The notes beneath the pieces are model-generated. The model made no database searches. It had not been told where the DNA came from and was given only the letters and a program-made list of their open reading frames with translations. DNA of 64,000 bases from Candidatus Kapaibacterium sp. (lineage in GTDB: Bacteria; Bacteroidota; Ignavibacteria; Palsa-1295), in assembly GCA_046590205.1 (NCBI GenBank), contig JBKJTT010000068.1, forward strand, positions 4,819 to 68,818, read 5' to 3'. Within the stretch, counting starts at the first letter, position 1, and every line of letters starts with the position of its first letter. Below, in pieces: positions 12,182 to 39,344 of this stretch. Both the position numbers and the translations under genes were made by a program.

Positions 12182-13999
12182 ATGGCACATCGGCATGTTG
12201 GTCTATGTTATACACGTCCTAAATTACTACTACTGTTGGCTGATATTTTTATTTCATACTCCCGAAAAGATGCCGAACTGGCTATTGCGCTTGCCGAGCG
12301 GCTGCGTGGGACCGGTGCAACCGTTTGGATGGACACCGTTGCCATCGTGGCAGCTCAAACCTGGAGCGCGGAGATCGTGAATGCGATAAAAGAATGCAAG
12401 GCACTTGTGGTCTTGCTTTCTCCTGATTCTGTCGCATCACAGAATGTAACAAAAGAGGTCGCGCTTGCATCCGAAATGCGAAAGATCATTGTCCCTGTTA
12501 ATATAAGTGAATGCGAACTCAACGATGCAATGATCTATGCGCTTGCCGGACTGCACCGCATTTCCTATCATGATGAAGAGGCACTCTTGCGTTCGTTCGA
12601 GAAGCATGGGTTTGGTAATAGAGGAGCGGAAGTAAGTCCATCAGAACCGAAAGAACCGACTGAAGCTCGCACTGACAGAATGGAATGTGTCCGTCCCACT
12701 ACTCTGCACGTTGCCGTGCTTCCATTCGATGACCTATCTCCATCAAAAGATAATGACTGGTTCGCCGATGGGATGATGGATGAGTTAATTACTACATTCG
12801 ACTCGCTTGATACAGTAGTAGTCTGCCCTCGTACAGATGTGCTTTATTACAAAGGGAAACATCCGAAGTTACAAGAGATAGTCGATGATCTGGGTGTCAC
12901 TCATGTCATCGAAGGGAGTGTGCAGAAGATACTTGAGAAGATACGTATCAATGTGACGCTCACTGATGCGCGAAAGAATCAGCGGGTCTGGAGCGAAACG
13001 TATCAGGGTACGTTCGATGATGTATTTGAACTGCAAGATAAAACATGTTTTGCTATCACCGAAGCATTGCGTATCAGCTTGACCCCTGAAGACGAAAAGA
13101 AAATAGAACGCAAACCGACTGATAACACCGAAGCATACGAGTTACTTTTAAAAGCAACTGAGTATTACTATAGACAAACACGCGCCGACTATGAACATGC
13201 GTTGCAGCTCTATGAAGTTGCCGCAAAGCTTGACCCGCTTTGCACTCCGGTGTTTTCTGGTATAGCATCCTCGTCGCTCGAACTCTATAAGTCGTACTCA
13301 CATGATACGGCTGATCTGAAAAAAGCAGAAGACTCTATTGCTAAGATGACTGCCATCGAAGGAGAGACTGCCAGATCACTTCGTTTGATAAGTAATATCG
13401 AGTCATTGCGCGGCAACAACGAAGAAGCGCTTCGGTATGCACAAAAATCTCTTCAACTTGACCCGGACTATTCACCCGCATATCAAGCACTTGGTCTATC
13501 TCTAACGGCGCTTGGTCGTCTGGGCGAAGCTGCCGATGCCAGAGAGCGGAACGTGCAATTGACCATCAATAGTATCCACGTTCACTTTGGGTTGCTCATT
13601 GTGCTCGATCAACTTGGGGACATGGCGCGTTTGCAAGCAGCAGCACTTCGGGCTATACCCTTTTATGAAAAACATGTTCGGTTCAATCCCGATGATGTCA
13701 ATGCACAAGTGCAATTAGCAATGGTGTTGTACTTTGCGGCACGACCTGAAGAAGCAAAACTAAAGGCAGATGAGCTTGTCCTCGAGAAAACAATTGACGG
13801 CAATGCTCTCTATAATCTTACATGTCTCTACCTAAAACTAACAGACACCTCTCGCGCACTTGCAACATTTCGCCGAAGCATCGAAGCCGGATTTACCGAC
13901 ATCAAACTCTTCCGCACCGACCCCGATCTCGCACTCCTTCGCGAAAGCCCGGAATTTGAGCTGTTAGTAGGAGAGTTGGAAGAGAAGATAGCCACGTAG
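12182..13999 (+). CDS. TIR domain / TolB-N-like / TPR repeat protein
   Basis: An N-terminal TIR domain (DIFISYSRKD...VWMD...LLSPDSVASQNVTKEVALA) has a candidate catalytic Glu in the KEVALA stretch. The middle segment resembles the TolB-N-like module seen in TPR signalling proteins. The C-terminal half is TPR repeats. There is no Walker A motif and no transmembrane segment. Confidence 0.7.
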   Translation: MAHRHVGLCYTRPKLLLLLADIFISYSRKDAELAIALAERLRGTGATVWMDTVAIVAAQTWSAEIVNAIKECKALVVLLSPDSVASQNVTKEVALASEMRKIIVPVNISECELNDAMIYALAGLHRISYHDEEALLRSFEKHGFGNRGAEVSPSEPKEPTEARTDRMECVRPTTLHVAVLPFDDLSPSKDNDWFADGMMDELITTFDSLDTVVVCPRTDVLYYKGKHPKLQEIVDDLGVTHVIEGSVQKILEKIRINVTLTDARKNQRVWSETYQGTFDDVFELQDKTCFAITEALRISLTPEDEKKIERKPTDNTEAYELLLKATEYYYRQTRADYEHALQLYEVAAKLDPLCTPVFSGIASSSLELYKSYSHDTADLKKAEDSIAKMTAIEGETARSLRLISNIESLRGNNEEALRYAQKSLQLDPDYSPAYQALGLSLTALGRLGEAADARERNVQLTINSIHVHFGLLIVLDQLGDMARLQAAALRAIPFYEKHVRFNPDDVNAQVQLAMVLYFAARPEEAKLKADELVLEKTIDGNALYNLTCLYLKLTDTSRALATFRRSIEAGFTDIKLFRTDPDLALLRESPEFELLVGELEEKIAT

Positions 14000-14036
14000 C
14001 AAATCACAAAAATCCAATAACCCCATTAACCCGACG

Positions 14037-15809
14037 CTACCTCCCCACCATCTTCTTCAAATCCAACGACCAAGGCGTAACTGCTGCGCCTTGCTTGATG
14101 ACGTTCACACTTGCGCGCCAGCCGTCGGCAGGACAGGAGAGAGCAATATGATACGCTCCCGCAGGAAACGAACTCATATCTACTGCATACTGATGTAACC
14201 CATCAACATCGACTACCTCTTCACGAAGTACCGTTACTCCGATGCTGTTGAATACACGTAACTCAAGTATACCTTTTGTGCAGTTCTCAAATGTAAGGAC
14301 GGTCTTCTGATCGAGTGGGTTGGGTGAGGCATAAAGTTGTGTGGCCTGAAGCTTTTTCAGTTCTCGATCGGATGCTATGTTATTCAGATGTACCGGTATC
14401 TTCGAGGTACCATGCAATACGGCAATATATCCTACATCATCCCAGTCACGGTCAATATCTCTCTGGATTTTTGCGCAAGGATTTCCAATAATAATATCCT
14501 GCATATTATCACTGTCGGCAGTCAATGTATCGGGAACTCCACAATCATATTCTGACTGATAGTACATATCAATCTTATCGTTCATTGCATCACCGAGCAC
14601 ATAGAATGAATGAGTACCTGTAAAACCTGAGTAACTACTTCCACCACTATGTAATACACGATTTCCTGTACCCGTCATATCACCCATATCCCTTAATGCT
14701 TGAAAAGAGAAAATACCTTTAAATTGTGAATTGTACTTTGATGGTTTCCACATGAAGAAATCAGGCTTGTCTATCATTAGTCGTTTTTTCCCGAAATCAG
14801 GACCACCACGATAAATCCATAATGATTTTGTACTATCGTTGTCTGTCCCAAAAGATGGCATGAGATCAACCGAATGGTCATTTGGATCATTTCTTCGGTA
14901 AGCTTGCATTGTAAAAAAGAATGGAGACCAACTTCCCGAATCTAACCCATGCAGTTTCGGATTTTCATGCCGAGATAATAATGTATCAAAACGGATAGCA
15001 TTTGCAAATTTTTCCATGTTGAATGGGGGATCATTCTCATAAAAATACCCATTACTATAATAATCAAAGAAGACCGCGTCTGTTCTTCCTGAATTTCGGA
15101 AATCCGCATATGTACCATATCGACTGAATTCAAGTGAATCATATCTACCAAGACTCATTGCGGAATCATGTGTCACCATTTCTCCTGGATGATAGAGTGA
15201 GGAGCCACCTTTATACAACACAACATATGTGGTATCTCTATATCCAGGATTTCCTGTACCAACCATAAATAGTATGTCATCAACAGTATCAGAGGTAAGG
15301 CGAGCTACATAAGAAAGTGGAAAGGACATCCGGTCTATCGTCCAATCACTTTTCAAATTATATCGTAGCGTAGTAAATCGGGTTCTATTAAATCTACCAT
15401 TGTCGTCAGCCCAGAAAATAGTATCATATTGTTCGCCGAACACTATGACATCTGTATGCTGAGTATCTCTAAAGTGAGCAAACTTATAACTAGTCCCTAT
15501 CCAACCTCTGAAATCAAGATCTGTTTCTTCAACATTTTGGAGATCGTGAATATCAAGATCAGTACTAGTGCTAAAACTGCTAAAGATACCTAAATGCTTT
15601 GGTAAGCCATAGCTAATAATTCTTCTGTTATTTTCCCCTGGAAATTGCGGAATGTTATTTGTATAGCCGCCAAGTTCTTGTTGGTTTCTACTGCCATAGA
15701 CTGTATCAATATCTACCCCTAAAATAGGGTAAAAACAACCACTTTCAAACTGAGCATGAGCAATTCCCGCAGAAAGAACAAGATATGCTGTAATAATGAG
15801 TACTTTCAT
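14037..15809 (-). CDS. Hypothetical secreted protein with a T9SS C-terminal sorting domain
   Basis: The signal peptide is MKVLIITAYLVLSAGIAHAQ, with the start at the internal ATG 15809. The C-terminal region matches the Por/T9SS sorting-domain pattern (LYASPNPLDQKTVLTFE...GAYHIAL...), followed by a 17-aa tail. Confidence 0.6.
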   Translation of the reverse strand: MKVLIITAYLVLSAGIAHAQFESGCFYPILGVDIDTVYGSRNQQELGGYTNNIPQFPGENNRRIISYGLPKHLGIFSSFSTSTDLDIHDLQNVEETDLDFRGWIGTSYKFAHFRDTQHTDVIVFGEQYDTIFWADDNGRFNRTRFTTLRYNLKSDWTIDRMSFPLSYVARLTSDTVDDILFMVGTGNPGYRDTTYVVLYKGGSSLYHPGEMVTHDSAMSLGRYDSLEFSRYGTYADFRNSGRTDAVFFDYYSNGYFYENDPPFNMEKFANAIRFDTLLSRHENPKLHGLDSGSWSPFFFTMQAYRRNDPNDHSVDLMPSFGTDNDSTKSLWIYRGGPDFGKKRLMIDKPDFFMWKPSKYNSQFKGIFSFQALRDMGDMTGTGNRVLHSGGSSYSGFTGTHSFYVLGDAMNDKIDMYYQSEYDCGVPDTLTADSDNMQDIIIGNPCAKIQRDIDRDWDDVGYIAVLHGTSKIPVHLNNIASDRELKKLQATQLYASPNPLDQKTVLTFENCTKGILELRVFNSIGVTVLREEVVDVDGLHQYAVDMSSFPAGAYHIALSCPADGWRASVNVIKQGAAVTPWSLDLKKMVGR

Positions 15810-15868
15810 CTCTATAAAGACACGCGAGAATCCAAATGGATGCGTAGTGTCAGGGCAAAAATACGTCA

Positions 15869-16048
15869 TATCGTAGGGGCTCGCCGGTGGCGTGCCTGTT
15901 TTCAGCTCCGATAGAAGTTACGTTTCGCTCCTACGGAGCTCTGGAATGTTGCGGATACTTTTCCAGGGGCTCACGCCCCTGGCTACCGACGTGCCGCTCC
16001 TATCGGAGCTAAGGGGGCAGGGCACGCCACCGGCGAGCCCCTACGATA
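15869..16048. repeat. GC-rich nested palindromic element (MITE-like, or a structured RNA or operator) in the 770-bp divergent intergenic region
   Basis: The outer inverted repeat tatcgtaggggctcgccggtggcgtgcctg (15869-15898) pairs with cagggcacgccaccggcgagcccctacgata (16018-16048), about 30 bp with one indel. TA dinucleotides flank both ends. Inner hairpins are cagctccgatag/ctatcggagct, gctcc-tac-ggagc and ccagggg-ctcacg-cccctgg. An internal direct repeat is cgctcctacggagc / cgctcctatcggagc. Confidence 0.6.
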
Positions 16049-16578
16049 GGTGCCTATGGGAATTGGCGAAAGCGGGGCAAAAACGTGGATTTCGGATATC
16101 CCCAAAGATTATCTTGTTGTTAATCAATAAGTTAGCGTGAATTTTTGGCGGACATCTTGCAAAACGTCAAATAATTTCGTAAATTTGCATGTCGGAGTTT
16201 GTCGCTCGTGGATTGTGATTCGTCGAAAATGCGGTTTTCCGATAGATTCTTCCATATCCAGATTCCTCATTTCGCTTCGCTCCATACGGAATGACGTCCC
16301 CGAAAACTAAAGCATGAACGTCTGCACCCCTAAACGTCCATTTCCCCTATATGTGTAAATTCTTAGCACCATCCCTGCAACCTACTACCCGTAACCTCCA
16401 ACCCTCATTAAAGTGGGGAAAAGTGGAAGAGGAGTGCACAATTAGAGTGTTGATTTATATGGGACTTACGAGGGAAAGTTGCGGAAAGTAAGGGCACAGA
16501 ATTATCCACACATTTTCCCCAAGATTTTTTGTAACCTTTTGGGAAGATAAGTGTCCTTTATATAGAGAATCTTACGAA

Positions 16579-17256
16579 ATGTCATTACTTACCTTACATA
16601 AAGAAGAAGAACAGGCATTAAAGCAGCCGAACGGGCAGCCACAGGGACCTACAGAACAGGACCGTCTGGACTTTGCTACCTACACTGCTTTTATTAAGGG
16701 TGATGACAAAGCATTTCTTCAGCTTTATAACCGCTACGAAGCGCCCCTTTTGCTCTATTGCCGTAAAATGTGTGCCGATAGCCGTGTCGCCGAGGACTCG
16801 TTCCAGGAGACATGGATGCATATTTTCGAGCTTCGCGGCAAGACAACAAGTTTGGCTAATTTCCGCCCGTTCCTCTTTCGCACAGGTCGGAATGTCTGCC
16901 TCAATAAAATGCGGCATGAGATGGTTCGAATTCGCAGGTCGGTTGAGTTAACCGATGAAAGCGCAAGCGTTTCGTACCAATCGGAATCTGAGCAGGAAGA
17001 GCTTCGCCAGCTTATTTCACGCGCACTGAGCAAACTGCCGATCGCCGAGCGCGAGGTATTTGTACTCCATGAGTACAGTAATTTTCATTATCATGAGATC
17101 GCATCGATCTTAGGTCGAAGCGATGCAAGTATCAAAACACTTGCCTTCAGGGCAAGAACCCGTTTACGAAAAGTGGTTTCAAGCTGGCTTGGTCTTGGCG
17201 AAGAAGCAGACCCGGCGGCACATAATCAGTTGTTTGCCAAGCTATGGAAGGAATAA
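16579..17256 (+). CDS. RNA polymerase sigma-70 factor, ECF subfamily
   Basis: Region 2 (DSFQETWMHIFE) and a region 4 helix-turn-helix (LPIAEREVFVLHEYSNFHYHEIASILGRSDASIKTLAFRARTRLRK) are present. Confidence 0.8.
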   Translation: MSLLTLHKEEEQALKQPNGQPQGPTEQDRLDFATYTAFIKGDDKAFLQLYNRYEAPLLLYCRKMCADSRVAEDSFQETWMHIFELRGKTTSLANFRPFLFRTGRNVCLNKMRHEMVRIRRSVELTDESASVSYQSESEQEELRQLISRALSKLPIAEREVFVLHEYSNFHYHEIASILGRSDASIKTLAFRARTRLRKVVSSWLGLGEEADPAAHNQLFAKLWKE

Positions 17257-17262
17257 TATAAT

Positions 17263-17895
17263 ATGAATATTCGTGACGAAGAGTTAGTACAACGGTATTT
17301 TGACCATTCGATGTCATCTGGTGAGGAACAAAACTTCCTCATTGATGTCGCCGCACGCGACGATATGCGGATGGCGTTCCGTTCACAGCTTGAACTACTC
17401 AAAGCGATCAAGTTTGATAAAGATATTTTAGGCGGTACAGGACTTGTCCGCGAGCGAACCCTTGCCGCACTTGGCTTATCGGCAATGCTCACGGCAACGA
17501 CCGATGAGGCAATCGCCGCGCCGACCTTCATGCAGAACGTGAAAGGGTTTCTCGCGAAACCATACACGATGCTTATTGCAGGTGTCGTCGCTGGTGGATT
17601 AGCAACGTATGCAGTGCTCCCGACGAACACTGTTATGGTAGCTCCGGTAAAGACCGAACAACAGATAGTACAGCCGTCATCGCTGGAGATTCAGATGCCG
17701 GAAGTCAGTGCTCCTGAAATTCAGAATAACCTGTCGCCTGCCGAAACGAAGCAGACAAACGTTGTAAAGCCAACTGCTAAGCAGGCAGTGACGAATACGA
17801 AGCCCGCGGAGACTACACCTATTGTGAATACGAACGGTGTATCACCAGAAGTCAAAAACAAGGTGGTTATCCGCAAACCGAGCGAGGTAAAATGA
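17263..17895 (+). CDS. Putative anti-sigma factor (single-pass membrane protein)
   Basis: The gene lies immediately downstream of the ECF sigma gene (6-nt gap). It has an N-terminal anti-sigma-like helix region, one transmembrane helix (YTMLIAGVVAGGLATYAVL) and a Pro/Thr/Val-rich extracytoplasmic tail. Confidence 0.5.
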   Translation: MNIRDEELVQRYFDHSMSSGEEQNFLIDVAARDDMRMAFRSQLELLKAIKFDKDILGGTGLVRERTLAALGLSAMLTATTDEAIAAPTFMQNVKGFLAKPYTMLIAGVVAGGLATYAVLPTNTVMVAPVKTEQQIVQPSSLEIQMPEVSAPEIQNNLSPAETKQTNVVKPTAKQAVTNTKPAETTPIVNTNGVSPEVKNKVVIRKPSEVK

Positions 17896-18027
17896 TTCTT
17901 TCATTCACATGATCCTTCGTTAGTACGAGATGGGGTGGGCATGTTGCCCGCCCCGTTTCGGTAAAAGGCGAAGGTGGTGCAAACGTGAACTTTCTCCTGG
18001 GATAACTTATTGTTATAGTAGAGAAAT

Positions 18028-20181
18028 ATGCTGCTTCTTGACGCAGTCCTTATGAGTGTCATGTTCGGTACCAAAACACACAGCCCTTCACGAGCGACCT
18101 CCCGTTTCGGGTATGTAGTGTCCCTATTACTTATACTCGCGTCATCCTCTTACTCGCAGATCGCATTGCTTTCCAAGAACGATAAACCTGCTCGGCTCGG
18201 TATCAGCGGACTTTATGGTACGAACATCTCAAGCACTCATATCGAAGAGTTTAACGGTCAGGAATTCTGCGGTGTCTTCGAGCAAGGCGAAGCACCGGGA
18301 TTATCAGTTGGTGTCTTTGGTGAGATACCATTTGGGGCAAGCAGCTTCTCGCTCATCCCCAGTCTGTCGTACCGTAACCTATCAAGCAGCTTTACAACAA
18401 ACCCGTTCAACTTAGAGCATGCTTTTGATATTGGTGCAGGAGATACAGTCCGCATTGACCGCGAACGAGTTTACCAGACTAACATCTCGACTATAGCTTT
18501 CGGAGCATCAGCCGGATGGCGACCGATTGAACAGCTCCGTTTCGATGCAGGATTATCATTCGGATTTTTCGCATCACATAGCTATACCAAGACGGAGCAT
18601 CTCCTGACACCGGATGCAGTCTATACATCAAACAACCTCTCGACGCTTGAACTTGAGAGTGGTGAGATGCCAGTCAACTCATTCCTGCTTACACTTGAGA
18701 CAGGTATCGGCTATGACTTCCCTCTTTCGGATAAGGTAACGTTCTCGCCTCGGATCAATGCAAGTATCCCGCTAACAGCTATTTCCGAAACTGGCGGTTC
18801 AAGTTATAAAACATGGACTATCGCCGGCGGAGCGCAGCTATCAGTTGCACTTGATAAAAAAGAAGAACTCTATATCCCGCCAATACCGCCGGAGCTACCG
18901 ACTGCCCCGCCTGCAGAAAAACCGGTTGCTATTCGTGAACCTGATAAGAGTGTTCTTCGCGTCAATGTCAGGGCTGTTGGTATTACAAGCGGCGGCGAGG
19001 AAGTCCCGGAGCCAATAGTCTCAATACAAAATGTTCGCGTCACAGACCTTGCGCCGACACTCAACTACGTATTCTTTGATGACGGTAAAGAGGAAATACC
19101 TTCTCGCTATCAGAAGATAACAGCATCCGGCACACGCGGCTTTAACTACTCAATGTTCAATACCGAAAATGCACTTGAGATACATTATAGCGTCTTGAAC
19201 ATCATCGGTAAACGACTACAATCTGAACCGCAGGCAAAGATAACCTTAACAGGGACAAAGAGTCTTCACTCGGATGGTGATTCACTTAGTGAAGATAACC
19301 TTGCAATGCAACGCGCACAGAATGTTGCAAACTACTTGCAAAATGTGTGGGGTATCTCTTCATCCCGCATCCGTATCAAGAGCAAGGGATTGCCGGATCA
19401 GCCATCGGATGATAATACATTGACTGGTCAAGCAGAAAATAGACGAGTTGAAATTAGCACTTCATTCCCAAAGATACTTGACCCGCTTGAGACAAAACGT
19501 ATAGAACGCACTGCAACACCGCCGCGCATTGCATTCTATCAGGATATTGTATCAGATACTGGTATTAAGTCGCTTCAGATAACTATCAAACAAGGCGACA
19601 AGATAATCGAGCGCATTGACGGACTCACCGACGAGCGAATTAAAGAACAACTTTGGAATATACCATCTGAAAGCATTACTGCTGGTTCAAGTGATTCTGT
19701 TCTCTGGACTATGGATATTGTAGATTTTGCCGGAAATACAGCGCAGGTAACAGGTGCTATCAATGTAAAGCTCGCGGAATCTACTCTTGATGTTAATAAA
19801 CGCGACACCATCGTTGATAAAAGTTTAGAACGCTTCCAACTCATCCTCTTTGATTACAGCCGTGCATCATCGTCACTTGATAACAATGTCAGTGCCCTGC
19901 TTGATAGAGTATCGTCATCGGTATCACCCGATGCCAAAATATATCTTGTCGGCTATACTGACATTACAGGCGACCAGTCATATAACGACCGACTCTCCCT
20001 TGATAGAGCAAGCAAAGCGTCGCTCTTACTATCATCAAAGCTGAAAACACTTGGCATACGTTCGCCGCAGTTCACGCTTGAAGGACGCGGCTCACGCGAA
20101 CTTCTCTATGATAATACAAATGCCGAAGGCAGATTCCTTTCTCGTACTGTGCGCATCTCGATTGAGAAGGATATTAAGTGA
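18028..20181 (+). CDS. OmpA-family protein with two C-terminal OmpA-like peptidoglycan-binding domains
   Basis: Two OmpA-like modules are present (ITLTGTKSLHSDGDS...NLAMQRAQNVANYL...NRRVEIS and IYLVGYTDITGDQSYNDRLSLDRASKASLLL...RTVRISIE). The N-terminal region is signal-peptide-like, and the exact start is uncertain. Confidence 0.65.
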   Translation: MLLLDAVLMSVMFGTKTHSPSRATSRFGYVVSLLLILASSSYSQIALLSKNDKPARLGISGLYGTNISSTHIEEFNGQEFCGVFEQGEAPGLSVGVFGEIPFGASSFSLIPSLSYRNLSSSFTTNPFNLEHAFDIGAGDTVRIDRERVYQTNISTIAFGASAGWRPIEQLRFDAGLSFGFFASHSYTKTEHLLTPDAVYTSNNLSTLELESGEMPVNSFLLTLETGIGYDFPLSDKVTFSPRINASIPLTAISETGGSSYKTWTIAGGAQLSVALDKKEELYIPPIPPELPTAPPAEKPVAIREPDKSVLRVNVRAVGITSGGEEVPEPIVSIQNVRVTDLAPTLNYVFFDDGKEEIPSRYQKITASGTRGFNYSMFNTENALEIHYSVLNIIGKRLQSEPQAKITLTGTKSLHSDGDSLSEDNLAMQRAQNVANYLQNVWGISSSRIRIKSKGLPDQPSDDNTLTGQAENRRVEISTSFPKILDPLETKRIERTATPPRIAFYQDIVSDTGIKSLQITIKQGDKIIERIDGLTDERIKEQLWNIPSESITAGSSDSVLWTMDIVDFAGNTAQVTGAINVKLAESTLDVNKRDTIVDKSLERFQLILFDYSRASSSLDNNVSALLDRVSSSVSPDAKIYLVGYTDITGDQSYNDRLSLDRASKASLLLSSKLKTLGIRSPQFTLEGRGSRELLYDNTNAEGRFLSRTVRISIEKDIK

Positions 20182-23100
20182 GTACGATAAGAACATATCG
20201 TCTCACCCTTGTTGCGCTCTTCGCACTGTTGTTTGCAGCAACCCTGCGAAGCCAGAATTGCGAATCGAACATGCTCTTCATACAAGACTCTGGTGGATAT
20301 GCTTACGTCCCGAAGTTCTCTGCAACAAAACTTGGCACGTCATTTACGATAGAGTTTTGGGTACAGTCACTTCGGAGCCAAAGTGGTAAAGGAATTCTTG
20401 AGATAGGGAGAACCGGTGATAGCGGAACAATACGATTTGAGATCGATAGTTCATTCTTAGTCAAAGCAACAACATCTTTTACAAATGCTACTGTATCGCT
20501 GACCACACCGTCATTTACTCAATCACAGTGGAATCACGTTGTGCTCTCGCTCTCAACAAAAGATACACTTAAATTATATCTTAATGGTACTCTTGTAGCA
20601 AGCCAAAGAGTATCGACACGCACATTACGAACACTCGGGGATACGCTTTTTATTGGTACAAGCAGTTTATTGCAGACAACACTTTATGGTAATATTGATG
20701 AGCTTCGTATTTGGAACAAAGAACGTACCCTCGCGGAGATACAAATTCACAACACCTCACCGGTTTCGGATACCGCATCAGGTCTGGCTGCATACTACCG
20801 TATGGATGATAGATCAGGGCTTGGAAGACTTTGCGATTTTTCATGGAATGGAAATAATGGGATACTCGTAGGCAATGCTTCTACTACCGCGTCCACTTCA
20901 CCTATCGGAGCACCCGACCATAAGGGGTACATGCTCAAGGCACGGGAAAAGATCGTTGATATGGGGACCATTTCGTGCGGCGGCTCAAAAGCTGCAACGG
21001 TTCATATCACCAACACTGATATTGATACACTTGGAATAAAATCGATCGGGTATTCGAGCGGAAATATCTTCAGTATTACGCGGACACCGCCGTTCCCTAT
21101 CTATCCGGGCCGAACGGAAATAATATCAGTCCAAGCAGACGCAAAAAGTATCGGTACGTTCTTTGACACGCTTATCATTGCAAGCTCGACTGAATGCGGA
21201 GGCATCGTAAAGATAATTTTTAAGATCCGAGTTGACTCAGCCGGAGTGGAATTTCTCAATCCAGAAGTGCTCTTAAGTAAGATCCCAATATGTGATCTAC
21301 CCAGAAAATCATCGGTACAGCTCAAGAATACCGGCGGCTCGAAAGTAACTATTGATTCATATCAAATTCTGGATGATCAAGCAATAGAGATCATCAGTCC
21401 TGCACTACCTTTTACTATCGATAGCGGAGCGACACAAGAAGTTCTCTTTACCATCCGTGACCTTCCACCTTCAAAATTTATCACACGCCTACGTATCCAT
21501 ACAAAAGAATGTTCAAGGATAGCGGAAGTTTCTTTTGCAGGTGAACGGACAGATGTTGGTTTTATCTTGCCGGAGGAGATGGTCTATCCTGCGGCGAACA
21601 TGACTTCCAGCGGAGTAATGTACGACAGCACATTCTTTATCTACAATACAGGCACCTCGGAGATATTTATTAATGATATGAGGATCATCGGAGATCCTAT
21701 GTTCCGAATCGTAAAACCAATTTCCGGGAAAATTTATCTTGTCCCCGGTGATACCGCTGAAGTAACGATACGCCTTGATGCACGGACGTGCGGGGAGTTT
21801 TCCGCAAAGCTCGCACTAAAAGGAGTGCCCTGTGGCATAGATACCTCCATTCGGTTGAATGCTGTTGTTGATGGTCCGCTCATCGAACTCAATGATGAGT
21901 ATGACCTTGGCTCATCATGCTTCGCACATGATACGACAATAACATTCGTTAACCGTTCGGATATCACGACCATTCTTGGCAAACCGAGCTTTGATAAAAC
22001 AAATGTATTCACATACTTCGATCAAGGGCTCCTCCCGAAACAACTTGCACCCGGTGATTCGGTAACAATAGCTCTACGCTTTAATCCTCTTATCCCGGGA
22101 GTACATACAGTGCAGGCAACGCTTCCGCTTACTCCGTGCGGGGAGGTTAGTATTACACTAAAGGGACTTTTAGGAGTTGGGTTAATTGCAGTGAGTGATT
22201 CTCTCATTGATTTCGGTCTCGCCTGTGACCTTATACCACAACAAGAAAGCATCAACATCACGAACAATGCCGGAAAAAACGTAACTGTAACGACTGCCGA
22301 CATTATTGGCTCACTCGATTATACGCTTCTTTCCCCATTGCCACCGTTCACTTTGAGTGATGGTGAGACAAAAAATATCATAGTAGAATATCATCCGGCT
22401 TCTCTCGGGCTTGATTCGGCGAACCTTGTGATGAACGATAATGGCTGCTTTGTTACCTCTATCCCTATAGGCGGAATCCGAGAGATAACATCGCTTAAAC
22501 TTGTGAGCGATACTATTGTCTTTGATATGACATGCCCAACGAAGCGTTCTCTAAAGAGTTTTGGTATTGAGAATCTCGGTCTCGGAACGGTATCGATCAC
22601 GAGTGTAACATTCGGCGGTACAACGTTCGGGATAGGCAATCTTGGGAATGTGAAATTAGGTGCAAAACGAGTTACTACCCTTCCTATTTCATTTAATCCG
22701 AAAACGTTGGGCTTGCATGAAGATATGCTCACCATCGTTTTTGGTCCATGTGATGATACTCTTGTCTTGCACTTGAGGGGGATCGGCGGACCTATCGCAC
22801 GCCTCATTCAAGAAGACACACTTTTTGATTTCGGTGAGGTAAAGATCGGTAACACAAGAACACTTTGTGTAGAGTTCACAAACCCAAGCTGTTTGCCGAT
22901 CATTATAGAGAAGTCGAGCATCTTACTTGATGGTTCGTTCGAGTTAGATTTTACCGACAGTACATTGGAACACTTCCCATACAGTGTGACAAAAGATAAC
23001 CCGATAACATTTTGTTTCCGATATACACCAACGATCGAACGAGAGGACTCAAGAATTTTTAGAATACGTTTTGCCGGGGACAGCGTAACAACGATTCTAA

Positions 23101-24719
23101 AGGGAACGGGCATCACCCCACATATTACTCATACTCATCGAGTTCTTGATTTTGGTGATGTCCTTCTCGATAGTACAAGGACACTCTCTGATACAGTAGC
23201 AAATACTGGTAAACTTCCTGTAGTCTTTGTCACTACTCAACCAATCAGTTCTGTATTTACTGTTCTCACTTCTCCTGTAGGATTAGCTTCAGGAGATGAC
23301 TCTCTCTTACGTGTATCCTTCACCCCAAGAGCAGCAATGCTCTATGAGGACACAATCTTCATGCAATGGGAGCAAACCGTTGATACGATCATCCTTCGCG
23401 GAAGAGGTACAGGGCACGGCGCACTCGTGAATACTACACAAGTTGATTTTGGTGATGTGCGTGTCAATACATCTCAAGACGCAAAGATCGCTATTACAGC
23501 CGGAGATGGATTCCCCGTAATCCTCTCGAACGTTGCTATTACGGGTAGTTCGTTCGGTTTCAGCCCCCCAAGTACTAATACGCTATCCTCATCACTTGAT
23601 ACTGCATTTGTAATTATCACATATAGTCCTACTCTTGAAGTGAGTGAATTGGTCCAGCTCACCTTCGACGACAATGCAGGCAACAAAAAGTCTGTAAATC
23701 TCAAAGGACGAGGCGTTGAGGCACATCTGCGAATTGATACACAGTTCGTTGATTTCGGTGTAGTAAAAATTGGTACTGAAAAAACAGCATTGATACCAGT
23801 ACTGAATACCGGTGACTACCCACTTTCTATATCAGAAGCAAGACCCGATATTCGTTCTGTTTTTGACTTGATAAAATTACCAGGTGACATCCCTGCACGT
23901 TCAAGCGAATACTTTGAGTATGTATTCAAGCCGGTAACTGACATTGAGTATTTTGATGCCGTAACCATCACTGCAGACGCTCCAGAAAAAGAACGTACTA
24001 TTATCATTCGCGGTGAAGGCACATTCGGAGATATTATCTATTCGGTTGGAAATGTTACTCTTAACGTAGGTGATATAGTTGAACTGCCTGTTTCAATTGG
24101 TGGTACTGACTTTGCTTCTGTTGCTATTGATAGCTTCACGTGTGTAGTTCATTATGATCCGACCGTCATGTTCGTCCATGATGTCATAACAGAGAATACA
24201 CTTTCAAGTGGGATGATGATGATCGTTGATCGTCTGCCCAAAGACAGCATTATCCGTATTCACGGATTTGCAAAACGATTACCAAGTACACCCGGTGTCC
24301 TCTTTAACTTGAAGGTAGAAGCATTACTCGGACCTATCGATACCACAAGTGTCATGCTTGCCTCATCATCACCGAAACATCAATCACCGCAGGCAGCGCA
24401 AGGGCTATTTACCGTTGCTGATTGCGGAAAATACCGAACAAATATTCACTACAAGGGACCTTACTCGCTTTCTGCTCCGAAGCCGAATCCGGTGACTTCG
24501 ACGCTGTCGCTCTCGTATGAACTCGGTCTTGACGGATTTGTCTCAATGGATATTATCGATGAACTCGGAGTGGTCGTAAAACGAATTCTTTCCGACTCAC
24601 AAAAAAGAGGAAAGCACAACGTTGTTGTAAATGTCGCCGACCTGCCCAGTGGTATGTTCACCTATATCCTACAAAGTTTGGAATACCGCGAAGCAAAGAG
24701 CTTTATTATCTCAAAATAA
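20178..24719 (+). CDS. Giant (1513 aa) secreted adhesin-like protein with, in order, a LamG/ConA-like lectin domain, multiple Ig-like (ASH/choice-of-anchor-like) repeats, a cohesin-like domain and a T9SS C-terminal sorting domain
   Basis: A GTG start overlaps the upstream stop codon (operon coupling). The signal peptide is followed by the LamG signature (FTIEFWV...LYLNGTLVAS...DELRIWNKERTLAEIQ). A repeated DFG.V.IG...T..V.N.G domain occurs many times. The tail matches a cohesin-like segment followed by the sorting domain (...LSAPKPNPVTSTLSLSYELGL...GMFTYILQ...). Confidence 0.75.
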   Translation: MSTIRTYRLTLVALFALLFAATLRSQNCESNMLFIQDSGGYAYVPKFSATKLGTSFTIEFWVQSLRSQSGKGILEIGRTGDSGTIRFEIDSSFLVKATTSFTNATVSLTTPSFTQSQWNHVVLSLSTKDTLKLYLNGTLVASQRVSTRTLRTLGDTLFIGTSSLLQTTLYGNIDELRIWNKERTLAEIQIHNTSPVSDTASGLAAYYRMDDRSGLGRLCDFSWNGNNGILVGNASTTASTSPIGAPDHKGYMLKAREKIVDMGTISCGGSKAATVHITNTDIDTLGIKSIGYSSGNIFSITRTPPFPIYPGRTEIISVQADAKSIGTFFDTLIIASSTECGGIVKIIFKIRVDSAGVEFLNPEVLLSKIPICDLPRKSSVQLKNTGGSKVTIDSYQILDDQAIEIISPALPFTIDSGATQEVLFTIRDLPPSKFITRLRIHTKECSRIAEVSFAGERTDVGFILPEEMVYPAANMTSSGVMYDSTFFIYNTGTSEIFINDMRIIGDPMFRIVKPISGKIYLVPGDTAEVTIRLDARTCGEFSAKLALKGVPCGIDTSIRLNAVVDGPLIELNDEYDLGSSCFAHDTTITFVNRSDITTILGKPSFDKTNVFTYFDQGLLPKQLAPGDSVTIALRFNPLIPGVHTVQATLPLTPCGEVSITLKGLLGVGLIAVSDSLIDFGLACDLIPQQESINITNNAGKNVTVTTADIIGSLDYTLLSPLPPFTLSDGETKNIIVEYHPASLGLDSANLVMNDNGCFVTSIPIGGIREITSLKLVSDTIVFDMTCPTKRSLKSFGIENLGLGTVSITSVTFGGTTFGIGNLGNVKLGAKRVTTLPISFNPKTLGLHEDMLTIVFGPCDDTLVLHLRGIGGPIARLIQEDTLFDFGEVKIGNTRTLCVEFTNPSCLPIIIEKSSILLDGSFELDFTDSTLEHFPYSVTKDNPITFCFRYTPTIEREDSRIFRIRFAGDSVTTILKGTGITPHITHTHRVLDFGDVLLDSTRTLSDTVANTGKLPVVFVTTQPISSVFTVLTSPVGLASGDDSLLRVSFTPRAAMLYEDTIFMQWEQTVDTIILRGRGTGHGALVNTTQVDFGDVRVNTSQDAKIAITAGDGFPVILSNVAITGSSFGFSPPSTNTLSSSLDTAFVIITYSPTLEVSELVQLTFDDNAGNKKSVNLKGRGVEAHLRIDTQFVDFGVVKIGTEKTALIPVLNTGDYPLSISEARPDIRSVFDLIKLPGDIPARSSEYFEYVFKPVTDIEYFDAVTITADAPEKERTIIIRGEGTFGDIIYSVGNVTLNVGDIVELPVSIGGTDFASVAIDSFTCVVHYDPTVMFVHDVITENTLSSGMMMIVDRLPKDSIIRIHGFAKRLPSTPGVLFNLKVEALLGPIDTTSVMLASSSPKHQSPQAAQGLFTVADCGKYRTNIHYKGPYSLSAPKPNPVTSTLSLSYELGLDGFVSMDIIDELGVVVKRILSDSQKRGKHNVVVNVADLPSGMFTYILQSLEYREAKSFIISK

Positions 24720-24762: not shown

Positions 24763-25320
24763 ATGATACTAACCGATAAAGAAATCTTAAACGAAATCGA
24801 GGCAGGGACGATACTCATCGAGCCATATCGCCGCGAAGACCTCGGCTCTAATAGTTATGATGTTCACCTGGGTGCACCGCTTGCAACCTATCGCTCTGCA
24901 ACTCTCGATGCAAGAGCCCATAACGAGATCGAGCATTTTATGATACCCCCTGAAGGGTACGTACTTCACCCGGATACGCTCTATCTTGGCGTGACCGAAG
25001 AATATACCGAGACACATAAGCACGTCCCTTTCCTTGAGGGCAAATCATCTGTCGGCAGACTCGGGATTGATATTCATGCAACCGCAGGCAAAGGTGATGT
25101 TGGCTTCTGTAATTATTGGACGCTTGAAATATCAGTGAAGCAGCCAGTCCGTATCTATGCCGGAATGCCTATTGGACAGCTTATTTACTTTGTTGTACAA
25201 GGTGAATGCCTTGTACCCTATAATACCAAAGGAAATGCGAAATATAACGCCCGCACTACCCGTCCAGTCGAATCAATGATGTTTAAGAACTTCGACGAAA
25301 AAGAGGGCAAATGGAAATAA
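24763..25320 (+). CDS. dcd: dCTP deaminase
   Basis: MILTDKEILNEIEAGTILIEPYRREDLGSNSYDVHLG is a typical Dcd N-terminus. The start is set at the ATG at 24763 (the track ORF opens with TTG at 24754). Confidence 0.8.
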   Translation: MILTDKEILNEIEAGTILIEPYRREDLGSNSYDVHLGAPLATYRSATLDARAHNEIEHFMIPPEGYVLHPDTLYLGVTEEYTETHKHVPFLEGKSSVGRLGIDIHATAGKGDVGFCNYWTLEISVKQPVRIYAGMPIGQLIYFVVQGECLVPYNTKGNAKYNARTTRPVESMMFKNFDEKEGKWK

Positions 25321-28394: not shown

Positions 28395-29435
28395 TTGAGA
28401 GTAGCAGCGATGAACACACAACGGCTTGACATCATAAACATTGGTCTGATGCTGCTCTCGTTCGGCTCGGCGTTGCTGTTCCCTGCCGAAACATTTCTTG
28501 TTGCTATTATGATTCTTGGACCGTTGCATTATCTTACTGAAATGCCATGGCTTGAGAAGAAGGGGTTCTTCATTCCTTCAAAAAAGATGGTATGGCTGCT
28601 TGTAGGAATGGGAGTACTCATTATTTTTCTGCAATTTGGGAAAGATCTACTCCCTGAAGGAAGCGGTAAGTGGACATTCCGAACAATGGGCATGTTAGCT
28701 GGAGCATGTTTCCTCGTAGCGTTTTCGCTTACAATGTTCAAGAAGTTATCTTTAATACTAGTCGCTCTTGTTGTCATTCTTATTGCTTCATGGTTTCTTT
28801 CCGAATCACCACAATATACACAGCTTTTTCTAAATCTATTCCCTACACTTATCCATGTCTTCATTTTTACGAGTGCATTTATCCTTTTCGGCGCGCTCAA
28901 ACATAAAAGTAAAACCGGAATCGCTTCACTTCTTGTTTACACAGTATGCACGGCGTTGATATTCCTTTTTACTCCAAGTGCTTCAGATGCAACCCTTAAT
29001 CCGACTGTCATTAATCTATATTACTATCAAGCGGATATACACATGAGCTTGGTCTCGATACTTAACTTCCCTACTATCGGTCCGGATAATTATGATTTGG
29101 ATAATCTCATTTTCTATTCGCCTGCGGGAATAACAGTAATGAGATTTATTGCCTTTACCTACATGTATCACTTCCTCAACTGGTTCTCAAAAACATCTAT
29201 TATCAAGTGGCATGAAAATAGTCGGTTCGTCCTTGTAGGAGTGTTTAGTGTTTGGATTGGTGTGCTCATATTATATTGGATCGATCTATCGTTGAGTTTG
29301 AATATCATCTACGTACTGGGTATCTTCCATGTGATACTTGAGTACCCTCTCAATCACCGATCGTTCGTTGGTATTGGTCAAGAGCTCAGGAAGCTCTTTG
29401 CCGGTGGTTCGCTCACACCTGCCGATTCGCGATAA
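28395..29435 (+). CDS. Hypothetical polytopic membrane protein
   Basis: About 9-10 hydrophobic segments are visible. The motifs HYLTEM and FHVILEYPLNHRSF may mark an intramembrane enzyme, but no family could be assigned. The start could instead be the internal ATG at 28410. Confidence 0.5.
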   Translation: MRVAAMNTQRLDIINIGLMLLSFGSALLFPAETFLVAIMILGPLHYLTEMPWLEKKGFFIPSKKMVWLLVGMGVLIIFLQFGKDLLPEGSGKWTFRTMGMLAGACFLVAFSLTMFKKLSLILVALVVILIASWFLSESPQYTQLFLNLFPTLIHVFIFTSAFILFGALKHKSKTGIASLLVYTVCTALIFLFTPSASDATLNPTVINLYYYQADIHMSLVSILNFPTIGPDNYDLDNLIFYSPAGITVMRFIAFTYMYHFLNWFSKTSIIKWHENSRFVLVGVFSVWIGVLILYWIDLSLSLNIIYVLGIFHVILEYPLNHRSFVGIGQELRKLFAGGSLTPADSR

Positions 29436-29484
29436 AAGGAAATACTTCCTGCGTATATCGGGTTTTCTATACGAGCAATTTACT

Positions 29485-32400
29485 GTGACGATTAAGGTCA
29501 TATATCGCCCGTTACTCCTTCTACTTCTGCAGATAACTACCATGTTTGCTGGGGTTACCTTTATCTACGGACAAGGGAGAGTCGTTCGCATTCAGCCCGA
29601 CGCGATAGCTGCGGGAATGACCGTTGCATTTGAGTTATTCGCTCTGGAAAAAGATTCAGGCACATTTGGTGCTGATGGTATCTATCTCCCCGATCAAAAG
29701 ATACAACTTGTAAACCCTTCCGATACCACAAGAGCAATTTTCGGACCCGTCGTCGTTAGTTGGAAAGGTCGTCTAATACAGATGCCTGTGACAATTAGCG
29801 AAACCACTCCGCAAGGGCAAATTCAGTTTCGTATTAAAAATGGTGCGTCGGTAAGTCCGTTCATTACATTTTTTCGGATCGTTGGACTCGATCCGAAAGT
29901 GACAGTATCAGGCAGCGCGGTCATAGGTGACCCATTCACAGGAATCGGCAAATTTACTCCCGGGAATACGATGGTCGTCGAAGGTTTGGAGATAACATCA
30001 ACCTCGCTAACTGATAATGTTACTTTTTCTACGTATCACATAGACAGCAACGGAAACCCACGTTTTCATCCTGTTATCATTCTCTCGAAGGGACCGATCA
30101 CGATCTCCAACTCAAGACTTTCTCTCAGTGCCGATTCACTCAATGGTGGACCCGGAGGGGGTGGGGGTGGGGGTGGATTTGCACGGACAGGCGGTGCAGG
30201 GTTTACCGGAGGAGGAAGCGACAGCGGAATAACTATTATGAACGTAGGATCGGGTGACGGACCAAGTTTTCAAATCGATGGTTCTTACACCGGCGGAGCA
30301 TCACTAACGGGTGCTTTGGGTGGAGTTAGTGACTTTTCAGATCAAGGTGGTGGTGGTGGAACAGGATCACCATTTGGATCAAGCGGAAAAAGCGGAAGGG
30401 AAAATAGTTTATCTCCTAAAGGTGGGTATGGTGGTGGCTCAGCTGGCGGAGAAGAATTGAATCTACCATACGGCGGCGGCGGCGGCGGCTACGCAACAAA
30501 AGGTGAGAGTGGCAAAGGGGGAGGAGACAATGGTGGGAACATCAATGGCGGCAGATTTCTTGTTCCGCTGCAAGGTGGTTCCGGAGGCGGCGCAGGCAAT
30601 TGTTACGAATGTATTGATTCACTTACAGGTTCAGGCGGCGGGGGCGGCGGGGGATTAACAATCATCAGCTTCGCAAGTATTAATGTAAACGCTTCGAAGA
30701 TACTATCGAATGGGAATATGGGTACAAACGCACCAGAACGACTACAAGCCGGTGGTGGAGGTGGCTCCGGGGGTGCTCTATATCTTACAGCACGAGCAAA
30801 AGTAATCTTTTTGTCAGCAATGCTTCAGAGTCAAGGCGGCAATGGCGGACTCGGAGGAATTGATATAGAAGAAGCATCACGCGGAGGGAATGGCGGAGAT
30901 GGCTTGATTCGTGTCGACGGCGATACATCTTTTGTCGCAAGCTCATTTGATGCCGGTATCATTGCTTCAGGTCCTACCGTACACATCCCAACGAGTCCGG
31001 TATCTGCGGTCGGTTTACAAATTATCGGTACTGCGGGAAACATGATGGGACTGAAAGATTCTATCCGTATCTACTACCGCTCCTCCCGTTCATCATGGAA
31101 ATTCGTTGATACGGTTCGCATCACCGATACCCGCTGGCAAAAATATATTCAGTCTGATTTTGATTCGGTACTCTATGTGACAGTCCTACAAAGGACTGAA
31201 GACCCGCAACGAAGATTTGCAAACTACGAACCGGAGTGGCTGCTATCGCATTTATCAAGTGGTATCATCAAGGTTATTCCACGTCCACGTCTCGTTTATT
31301 CTCCTGATACCGTTCGCACGGGATGCATAAAACTTGACTCATGCGGTTCGAGCACAGTCTATTTAAACAATGTAGGTTCTCTTCCAGTCACGATAGACTC
31401 TCTTAGTATATCCAATCCTGATTTTACGATTATCTCTAATCCTACTTCGATTCGCCAATTTTCACGCGATAGCATTACCATAAATTACTGCCCAAAAAAA
31501 GCAGGGCAAGATACGGCAATACTCTCGCTTTTTACAAATGATTCGTCAAGGCAGATTGTCGTTATCGGCTGCGGCACAAACAAAGATTTGCGTATCACGA
31601 TTATTACATCAATCCATCATTTTGGCAGACGGAAAGTTGATTCTTGTTATACTGTAAAGATCACTATTAAGTCTGATGGTCAAGATACTGTCACCATTGA
31701 CCCAAAAGAATTTACGAACGGCCAGTTTACAGTTCTATCGCCAACATCACCAATCAAACTTGGAAAAGGGCAAAGTGATACAATAGTTATTCAGTATTGT
31801 CCAACTGACACCGGCTTCGTTCGCTCCTCTGTAATTATAACGGAGCAACGGGATTCTATCGTCGTCACAGGCACCGGAATACTGAAGAAAATATCAGCGG
31901 TCGATACACTGAATCTGGGAGTGCTATGTAATGGCAAATGCTTTGATACCACAATTACAATTACATCAAGCGGAAATGAGCCGGTCCGTGTGGATTCTAT
32001 CAATGGGGCAACGATACTATTATCTCAACTCCCCATAACTCTTCAACCTGAGCAGCAGACAGATATTCGCATACGTATCTGTCCCGATTCGATCACGCAA
32101 ACACAAAAGAGGATTAGCTTTATCGGTGATGCAGATTTTTCGCAATCTACTCTATCTGTATTTTTACTTTCATCGCCAAATCTTACACTTACCCAACCAC
32201 TTGAATTCAAGGGAATCTGTATCGGTGGTAAGGATACGATAGTCCGAAGCTTTGTTAACCGAACAGGTACTAATTTAGCTGTAAATTCCGCGTCGCTTCA
32301 CGGAAGTTCAGGGATAACATCCTCTGCGATTTCTACACCGACATCATTACCGAGTGATGATTCTGTGCGGATTGAGTTTTACTTTGATCCTGCTACACCG

Positions 32401-39299: not shown

Positions 39300-39344
39300 T
39301 AACTCATCCTGTCACAGAGCGTTACCGAGTTGTGTCATTGTAAT

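Follow-up and report, generated by a model that had tools for sequence, protein, structure and literature searches.

A conserved ECF sigma factor gene and a putative membrane anti-sigma gene linked to genes for an OmpA-family protein and a giant surface protein in Kapabacteria-like Bacteroidota

A 64-kb stretch of DNA from Candidatus Kapaibacterium sp. (contig JBKJTT010000068.1; 64,000 nucleotides, hereafter the window) contains a cassette of four genes encoding a sigma factor of the extracytoplasmic function (ECF) type (ORF1), a putative anti-sigma factor (ORF2), an OmpA-family protein (ORF3, the OmpA gene) and a giant, probably exported protein (ORF4) that resembles type IX secretion system (T9SS) cargo. 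The reading we favour, with a probability of roughly 0.6, is that the first two genes form a lineage-specific switch of Kapabacteria-like Bacteroidota, in which an ECF sigma factor and its membrane anti-sigma factor govern secreted surface proteins, and that, in the genome, this switch is tied to genes for an anchor of the OmpA type and for a giant adhesin. The coordinates of the genes and of the other elements discussed are collected in Table 1.

An earlier interpretation of the same DNA, made from its letters alone (the sequence-only reading), had stated that it would be refuted if the order of the four genes were not conserved in relatives; the order turned out to be kept in all informative relatives and in a paralogous cassette. 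A scan of a genome collection produced 79 loci (numbered with the prefix L), which were annotated by BLASTP with the window proteins. The order sigma gene, ORF2, OmpA gene and LamG-headed giant gene was present in all loci that had an OmpA identity of at least 36% and enough flanking sequence, with no exception (23 contigs from genomes, one from JGI and 7 from metagenomes), including homologues whose OmpA proteins were 52%, 47% and 38% identical to that of the window. Fragments at contig ends were consistent with this order as far as they extend, and the genes flanking the cassette vary among the loci. The OmpA and giant genes overlap, or are separated by no more than about 90 nt (mostly 10 nt or less), in the orthologous loci. 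Moreover, the same metagenome-assembled genomes (MAGs) contain another, diverged cassette of identical gene order, as seen in the pairs L039/L016, L040/L018, L044/L017, L048/L019, L057/L014 and L061/L021. The identities for this paralogous cassette are 33-38% for the sigma factor, 25-33% for ORF2 and 27-32% for the OmpA protein, and its giant protein of about 1340 aa is without LamG and has immunoglobulin (Ig)-like repeats and a T9SS sorting tail. Still more distant double-OmpA paralogues (26-30% identity) often lie beside other giant genes and have no sigma gene next to them, which argues that the OmpA/giant pairing is the older unit; two clades of this unit are linked to a sigma/anti-sigma pair. 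As a separate observation, two RVT_1 reverse-transcriptase genes (12799-14118 and 18598-19917 of L009) flank a giant Ig/T9SS gene that adjoins one such distant paralogue, one of the two separating the OmpA gene from the giant gene.

The region upstream of the sigma gene contains a conserved promoter-like motif, TGTAACC-N16-G(T/G)GTCTT, which is common to 24 loci. Within it, TGTAAC does not vary and neither do the G and C of GTC, even though the sigma factors of these loci are only 38-60% identical to that of the window. The form TGTAACC-N16-GTCTT has a single match in the window, directly before the sigma gene. When a weight matrix was applied in a leave-one-out manner to both strands of 25 loci of about 20 kb each, the site before the sigma gene ranked first in 24 of them with scores from 13 to 39 bits (at least 22 in all but one), the single miss being a site located further upstream than the scored interval. 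The motif has AAC in the -35 element and GTC in the -10 element (GTC or CGT being typical of the latter) and is conserved upstream of the sigma gene, as expected for an ECF-type promoter. Because such a promoter precedes its own gene, the comparison shows the sigma factor as a predicted autoregulator acting through TGTAACC-N16-GTCTT. This arrangement fits the rule that, in general, ECF sigma factors regulate themselves and share a locus with the genes for their regulators and/or targets (PMC7826278). A related and distinct promoter, TGTCACA-N16-GTGTC, belongs to the paralogous cassette. A generic scan of the DNA for sigma-70 promoters and terminators performed no better than on shuffled sequences.

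With regard to the sigma factor itself, ORF1 comprises regions 2 and 4 only (Pfam scores of 36.6 for Sigma70_r2 and 51.6 for r4_2) and scored 79.9 against TIGR02937, the model of the ECF superfamily (cutoff 42.9). By this domain content it is an ECF (group IV) sigma-70 factor, with an N-terminal extension of about 45 aa. It remained under the cutoff of every named ECF subgroup model, the best scores being 99.1 (cutoff 126.4), 94.9 (206) and 88.8 (130); the models compared include the Bacteroides-type TIGR02985, the PG0214/GFO_1088 family NF058625, SigM, SigW and RpoE. The solved structures nearest to ORF1 are those of SigL, AlgU, RpoE and SigW.

ORF2 gave no family match in Pfam or NCBIfam, no match to FecR and no sequence match in the PDB. 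It belongs to a small family, with 176 representatives at E <= 1e-3 among 1.84 billion, whose distant members show faint matches to RseA_N and zf-HC2. An alignment of 42 relatives revealed that the N-terminal 75 residues are strongly conserved, that a transmembrane (TM) helix follows at about residues 100-120, and that the outer tail of about 90 aa is proline-rich, of low complexity and poorly conserved apart from a short C-terminal motif. In the AlphaFold2 (AF2) model, helices were assigned to residues 3-13, 19-31, 33-55 and 62-69 in addition to the TM helix, at a mean pLDDT of 55 and of about 80 for residues 1-40. When this model was compared with the PDB by Foldseek, as the sequence-only reading had suggested, the ten best matches were all cytoplasmic anti-sigma domains (RsiW, RslA, MucA and RskA), and all were weak (E from 1 to 4.5, probability at most 0.5). 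ORF2 contains no cysteine, so it is not a zinc-binding anti-sigma factor (ZAS), and the H-x3-C-x2-C motif of that class is absent. In every cassette locus its gene adjoins the sigma gene in the same orientation, and the product has a single TM helix. Since ORF2 matches no family, we infer its role from position, topology and the weak fold signal, and refer to it as a putative single-pass anti-sigma factor; the label of anti-sigma factor given to it earlier thus agrees with its position and topology and finds no counterpart among known families.

ORF3 is a member of the OmpA family, consisting of a barrel and C-terminal OmpA-like domains. It scored 32.4 against OMP_b-brl_2 (cutoff 27) and 80.2 bits against OmpA over two stretches, which bears out the earlier assignment of a double OmpA domain. 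The protein starts with a signal peptide, followed by a beta-barrel (about residues 55-275, pLDDT about 90 in the AF2 model), a proline-rich linker, OmpA-like domain 1 (about 311-478), a beta-sandwich (about 489-588) and OmpA-like domain 2 (about 600-715). Foldseek matched it to E. coli OmpA, to the barrels of Ail, OmpX and Pla, and to the peptidoglycan-binding domains of AbOmpA (A. baumannii), OprF and Pal. The canonical GYTD...N..LS..RA motif is kept in domain 2, whereas domain 1 is divergent: at about residues 405-430 the usual G-x-T-D...G motif for peptidoglycan contact is replaced by T-G-T-K/R-S-x-H-S-x-G-D-S, a change that is kept in 20 orthologues. With domain 1 altered in this way and domain 2 canonical, it may be that not both domains bind peptidoglycan.

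The giant protein ORF4 carries a signal peptide, a Laminin_G_3 domain at residues 38-189 (score 81.6) and about 10 Ig-like repeats of about 100 aa each between residues ~250 and ~1285, which are of the DUF1573/ASH/HYDIN type (136.6 bits for the NCBIfam choice-of-anchor D model). Of the domains that the sequence-only reading had listed, the LamG head was recovered as such. The number of Ig repeats is about 10 and not clearly more, and the cohesin match is marginal (24.4 against a cutoff of 24.1). The sorting tail remained below threshold in ORF4 itself, both for Por_Secre_tail (PF18962, 23.3, cutoff 27) and for TIGR04183 (19, cutoff 23). However, the C-terminal 233 aa are 41-47% identical to those of orthologues, and PF18962 is above threshold in the more distant orthologue of L004 and in the paralogous giant, so that a T9SS type-A-like tail is attributed to ORF4 by homology.

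Predicted promoters of the same type were also found before other genes. A metagenome collection was scanned with the pattern TGTAACCTTTN7TCGNKGGTCTT, which gave 36 loci. Nine of the 36 hits lie before sigma cassettes; for two of these, at short contig ends (L107 and L116), similarity of the promoter or of an ORF was all that identified the cassette. Six lie antisense within two conserved coding-sequence families, a number close to chance expectation by rough estimate. Most of the other 21 hits are intergenic, in the right orientation and share a tail beyond the pattern (CTTAGTA or TATAGAG); those in L105/L121, L122 and L124 lack this tail. The predicted targets include a family of secreted proteins of about 570-620 aa (five loci) that have FG-GAP-like repeats and a weak sorting tail, a 907-aa IgGFc-binding/ASH protein with a Por_Secre_tail of 45.7 bits (two loci, one of them on a contig that also carries a member of the FG-GAP-like family), an 896-aa BNR/Sortilin protein with a Por_Secre_tail of 31.5 bits (one locus) and a 258-aa CarboxypepD_reg-like protein that is probably a lipoprotein (two loci). 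In another five loci (L099, L102, L106, L108 and L109) the promoter is followed by a conserved untranslated leader of about 400 nt (AACATACTTTCAGAAGGACACTTGATACGGTACTCTGTCTGA ... TTGCCGCTTTGAKCGGC) and then by an ORF of about 155 aa; the leader had no Rfam match and the ORF no Pfam match, and the former may act as a structured leader or as a small RNA. In addition, L030 has a 24-bit site in front of a BNR/Sortilin ORF that lies 7.7 kb from its sigma gene.

In the window, the second-best matrix match (18.2 bits) lies on the minus strand, immediately before a divergent gene for a secreted protein. Its spacer and -10 element are almost identical to those of the sigma promoters of L012 and L015. 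The divergent ORF extends from 14037 to 15869, and its true start is probably the ATG at 15809. The product shares 27-33% identity (E down to 1e-71) with the family of about 590 aa with FG-GAP-like repeats that stands behind the sigma-type promoter in five metagenome contigs, and a homologue of the gene is located immediately upstream of the sigma gene in L004. As judged from these similarities, the divergent gene is a probable member of the regulon. The comparisons in relatives thus show predicted sigma promoters at the head of other genes for T9SS-exported surface proteins, and the window offers a weaker case of the same kind.

The promoter type of the paralogous cassette also has a single match in the window (TGTCACA-N16-GTGTCAT, 0.06 expected by chance). 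It is situated right before the ATG of gene 39345-41861, which encodes a CARDB protein of about 838 aa with a Por_Secre_tail of 39.2 bits, and it comes after the terminator of a gene for a dihaem cytochrome c. A TGTCACA-type motif likewise precedes a divergent Ig-rich gene in L018 (minus strand, 8125). These sites suggest that a second sigma factor, encoded outside the window, may also control T9SS cargo.

The four genes had been described as a tightly packed four-gene operon. The four ORFs, their coordinates, the 6-nt gap between the sigma stop codon and the ATG of ORF2, and the overlap of the GTG start of the giant gene with the OmpA stop codon (aaGTGAg) were all as the sequence-only reading had them, the last two having been checked base by base. 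Tight packing thus holds for sigma/ORF2 and for OmpA/giant; ORF2 and the OmpA gene are separated by 132 nt, and the properties of this gap speak against a plain operon. Right after ORF2 there is a GC-rich hairpin, and the gap RNA of the window has a minimum free energy of -54.2 kcal/mol (z = -6.0); the hairpin, which has only a weak U tail, is likely a partial terminator or attenuator. Textbook terminators occupy the equivalent position in the close relatives L002, L016 and L018, and also in L015, L017 and L037. Most of the distant loci that were folded have one or two stable hairpins (z from -1.8 to -3.7) with differing stem sequences, and L024 has no gap structure above chance. As an observation on these hairpins, their shape is the same in L022, L025, L030 and L034 as in L028, L031 and L032, while the stems differ, e.g. 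CTCTCGCGG/CCGCGAGAG versus CACGCGC/GCGCGTG, which looks like compensatory change.

Between the hairpin and the OmpA gene, a separate promoter-like box (CGAACTTTCT) is conserved in the subclade of the window. Its general form is (C/T)GAACTTTCT with TATAG about 19 nt later, 30-45 nt upstream of the OmpA start, and the box of the window is the only exact match there. The box occupies the same place in the loci of the close subclade and stays beside the OmpA gene in L019 and L020 in spite of insertions. It contains an ECF-like AAC, and in some loci it also has a GCCTTTTTATAG, resembling the GTCTTTTATATAG of the sigma promoter. The -10 element of the box is not conserved and is absent in the window, so that the box is not assignable to the ORF1 sigma factor. 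Extra unrelated DNA of 0.8-2.7 kb was found in the gap of three relatives, with genes identified in two of them: L017 carries an IS1595 transposase gene together with genes for a methylase and an MvaI/BcnI-type endonuclease, L019 a thioredoxin-like gene, and L020 0.77 kb of uncharacterised sequence. Taken together with the absence of a sigma-type promoter before the OmpA gene, these findings do not support the description as a four-gene operon; the cassette probably consists of two transcription units, sigma/anti-sigma and OmpA/giant.

Several of these results weigh against the switch proposed above. No sigma-type promoter was found between ORF2 and the OmpA gene in 25 loci, where the best scores were -15 to +5 bits. 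A terminator-like hairpin follows ORF2, and the gap tolerates an insertion sequence with a restriction-modification pair as well as a thioredoxin-like gene. Control of the OmpA and giant genes by the sigma factor therefore rests on synteny only. The assignment of ORF2 as an anti-sigma factor has no significant sequence or fold match behind it (Foldseek E >= 1, pLDDT 55). The predicted targets in metagenomes are not all tied to genomes that carry the cassette, and the site before the divergent gene of the window has a degenerate -35 element (ATC in place of AAC), which makes it the weaker case. Finally, no gene of the T9SS machinery was found in the 64-kb window.

According to the switch model, ORF2 would use its N-terminal helical domain to keep the sigma factor at the inner membrane until an envelope or surface signal inactivates it. 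As the outer tail of ORF2 is short and unstructured, regulated proteolysis is suggested, as with RseA or RsiW. Once freed, the sigma factor would increase expression both of itself and of a group of surface proteins that are T9SS cargo. The OmpA and giant genes would be translationally coupled and their products would work as anchor and adhesin: the OmpA protein, with two domains holding it to peptidoglycan, would be the envelope anchor or partner, and the LamG head of the giant would be distal to its cell-attached C-terminus. In the subclade of the window, OmpA/giant would be a second transcription unit with the hairpin and its own promoter-like box, receiving only read-through from the sigma promoter. 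No other promoter can be seen in the distant subclade, and read-through from the sigma promoter is therefore the likely route by which the two genes would be reached.

The sequence-only reading had proposed that the four-gene operon is a surface-sensing or cell-envelope signalling module, in which the giant protein or its ligand may feed back to the sigma factor. Spelled out, the giant protein (or its ligand) and the OmpA protein would signal across the periplasm to the tail of ORF2 in the fashion of FecA to FecR. We consider this unlikely. The strict linkage of the four genes, kept even through duplication, is what such a module would lead one to expect, and the OmpA protein does have an additional periplasmic beta-sandwich of unassigned role. 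However, the hairpin or terminator, the separate box and the tolerated insertions between ORF2 and the OmpA gene speak against such a module. The tail of ORF2 ends in a short conserved motif and is otherwise of low complexity and poorly conserved, and no FecR domain, TonB-dependent transducer or signalling domain is present. There are precedents in SigX with OprF and CmpX (PMC7826278) and in the signalling from the cargo PorA to PorXY-SigP (PMC7712824). A broader form of the idea, which we regard as a long shot, is cell-surface signalling in a T9SS-era version: the giant adhesin with its lectin head and the OmpA partner tethered to peptidoglycan would together be a ligand or mechanical sensor read by the ORF2 tail, which would switch on a regulon of secreted proteins, and the paralogous cassettes with their TGTAACC and TGTCACA promoters would be insulated parallel channels.

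An envelope stress response of the RpoE/RseA type, in which an unassembled OmpA barrel or stalled periplasmic T9SS cargo triggers proteolysis of the anti-sigma factor and the OmpA/giant pair is the most demanding client, appears rather improbable. ORF2 is single-pass with a short unstructured tail, as are RseA and RsiW, and the nearest solved relatives of the sigma factor include RpoE, AlgU and SigW. The predicted targets are exported surface proteins, which would suit such a response, yet they are cargo and not the chaperones, proteases and assembly factors of classical sigma-E regulons. There is no protease gene in the cassette, and the lack of repair and quality-control genes among the predicted targets is a trend so far. 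Least probable of all is that the adjacency is meaningless and the sigma/anti-sigma and OmpA/giant pairs are independent neighbours in this lineage: the terminator, the box and the insertions that separate the two units, the absence of a cognate promoter before the OmpA gene and the distant double-OmpA paralogues beside giants without a sigma gene are all compatible with it, but the order is kept across OmpA identities ranging from 100% to 36% while the flanks change, and its retention in the diverged paralogous cassette is hard to explain without selection for linkage.

Compared with known systems, the cassette is similar in its first half to RpoE/RseA, SigW/RsiW and AlgU/MucA, ECF sigma factors paired with single-pass class I anti-sigma factors. 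It shares with these pairs a two-domain sigma factor, a gene for the (here putative) inhibitor directly downstream, the build of that inhibitor from a helical N-terminal domain, a single TM helix and an outer tail, and a (here predicted) autoregulated promoter whose -35 element contains AAC and whose -10 element contains GTC. The cassette differs from them in that the putative anti-sigma factor has no known family or zinc motif, the sigma factor falls below every named subgroup cutoff, and the predicted targets are secreted surface proteins and not envelope repair functions.

The combination with an OmpA-type protein recalls SigX-CfrX-CmpX-OprF of P. aeruginosa (ECF102), where the gene of an ECF sigma factor that initially drew notice for its part in the transcription of oprF (PMC3832394) sits with that of the OmpA-family porin OprF (PMC7826278). 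In both cases, the sigma gene is conserved beside a gene for an OmpA-family protein with a barrel and a peptidoglycan-binding part, and the C-terminal domain of OprF matches the OmpA-like domains of ORF3 structurally. The present cassette differs in having two peptidoglycan-binding domains and a coupled giant T9SS cargo gene, in another phylum and with another promoter. Membership in ECF102 was ruled out, since neither a CmpX mechanosensitive channel nor CfrX is present in the window or in the related loci. The same association also qualifies an earlier statement that ECF pairs usually sit with TonB-dependent transducers, which is valid for FecI-like groups and not for ECF sigma factors in general (PMC7826278). 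FecI-FecR-FecA and the ECF240/anti-sigma/SusC sets of Bacteroidetes share the layout of sigma factor, membrane anti-sigma factor and outer-membrane protein, whereas the cassette encodes a small OmpA-type barrel and no TonB-dependent barrel, plug or signalling domain. It was excluded from FecI/FecR/FecA, as ORF2 has no FecR domain and ORF3 no match to TonB-dependent receptors.

PorXY-SigP resembles the cassette in that an ECF sigma factor is tied to T9SS biology and signalling involves a cargo that has a C-terminal sorting domain, namely PorA, which passes a surface signal on to PorXY-SigP (PMC7712824). In contrast to the cassette, with its putative anti-sigma factor of classical type and cargo genes as predicted targets, SigP works together with a two-component system and has genes of the secretion machinery under its control. 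An anchoring role can be inferred for the OmpA partner of the giant. SprF/PorP-type partners have a role in secretion or anchoring. The remFG-sprCDBF operon, with SprB and SprF, is similar in that the gene for a very large, repeat-rich T9SS adhesin lies beside one for an outer-membrane protein (PMC9723704); it differs in that the partner here is of the OmpA type and not of the PorP/SprF type, and the sorting domain is type-A-like and not type B.

We found no description of the cassette in the literature searched, and nothing relevant on Kapabacteria with sigma factors or T9SS. The module would work as a classical ECF/anti-sigma pair does, by a conventional logic; new about it are the putative anti-sigma family, for which no model exists, the unusual pair of conserved partners and the cargo regulon predicted for it. 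It provides an ECF/anti-sigma module with a defined promoter and a predicted regulon of T9SS surface proteins in a poorly studied, uncultured branch of Bacteroidota and, if the proposal is true, a handle on how these bacteria choose which giant surface proteins to display. The TGTAACC and TGTCACA promoter types would be candidates for orthogonal sigma/promoter pairs, and the recurring pairing of double-OmpA proteins with giant T9SS cargo suggests a dedicated, unstudied anchoring partner.

Table 1. Genes, predicted promoters and other elements of the window (positions count from its first nucleotide)
Feature	Position	Strand	Description
Divergent neighbour gene	14037..15809	-	590 aa, secreted, signal peptide MKVLIITAYLVLSAGIAHAQ, weak Por_Secre_tail
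Second sigma-type promoter (predicted)	15814..15844	-	cgCATCC-N16-GTCTTT, ends 4 nt before ATG 15809
Palindrome	15869..16048	.	Perfect 28-nt arms 15869-15896 and 16021-16048, 124-nt centre with inner inverted repeat
Sigma promoter (predicted)	16530..16558	+	TGTAACC (-35), 16-nt spacer, GTC (-10, 16553-16555), T-rich tail
ORF1, sigma factor	16579-17256	+	225 aa
ORF2, putative anti-sigma factor	17263-17895	+	210 aa
Hairpin	17926..17961	+	GC-rich 16-bp stem right after ORF2, weak U tail
Promoter-like box	17985..18020	+	GTGAACTTTCT; core GAACTTTCT at 17987-17995, TATAGT about 19 nt on, before OmpA start
ORF3, OmpA-family protein	18028-20181	+	717 aa
ORF4, giant protein	20178-24719	+	1513 aa, GTG start
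Paralogous-type promoter (predicted)	39310-39336	+	TGTCACA-N16-GTGTCAT, right before ATG of gene 39345-41861

The large palindrome that had been noted upstream of the cassette does exist, with perfect arms, and it sits between the two divergent promoters. It was rejected as an operator of the cassette, being unique in the window, absent from the 89 related loci compared (0/89) and without a plasmid match. As it is not conserved, it is unlikely to be part of the module and is probably an unrelated repeat or an insertion resembling a miniature inverted-repeat transposable element (MITE). Long GC-rich inverted repeats ending in ...CCTACGA are also found in intergenic positions near the cassettes of L004 (about 5555-5640) and L025 (upstream of the sigma gene), and these may represent a class of repetitive extragenic palindromic (REP)/MITE-like repeats of these genomes.

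With regard to its surroundings, the window is chromosomal DNA of about 45% G+C containing the housekeeping genes recO, dcd, recQ, priA, purD, metH and hflX. The closest relatives of its proteins are encoded by MAGs named Candidatus Kapaibacterium or Kapabacteria, Ignavibacteriota or Bacteroidota; NCBI assigns Kapaibacterium to Bacteroidota. Rfam and tRNA scans of the window gave no matches. The dCTP deaminase gene dcd (24763-25320) begins about 40 nt past the giant gene with no terminator between them, and it is located directly 3' of the giant gene in all loci of the closer subclade and not in the distant subclade. On the other side of the cassette, 12182-13999 encodes a protein of 605 aa that combines a TIR domain at its N-terminus (79 bits) with TPR repeats, an architecture typical of defence or signalling proteins.

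Sorting tails above cutoff were found in three window proteins, encoded by 29338-33483, 39330-41861 and 54756-57281. The first of these is a second giant Ig-repeat T9SS cargo of 1381 aa (Por_Secre_tail 33.5 bits). The start of its gene is overlapped by a 346-aa ORF at 28395-29435 that has no family match, and the two may constitute another pair of partner and cargo.

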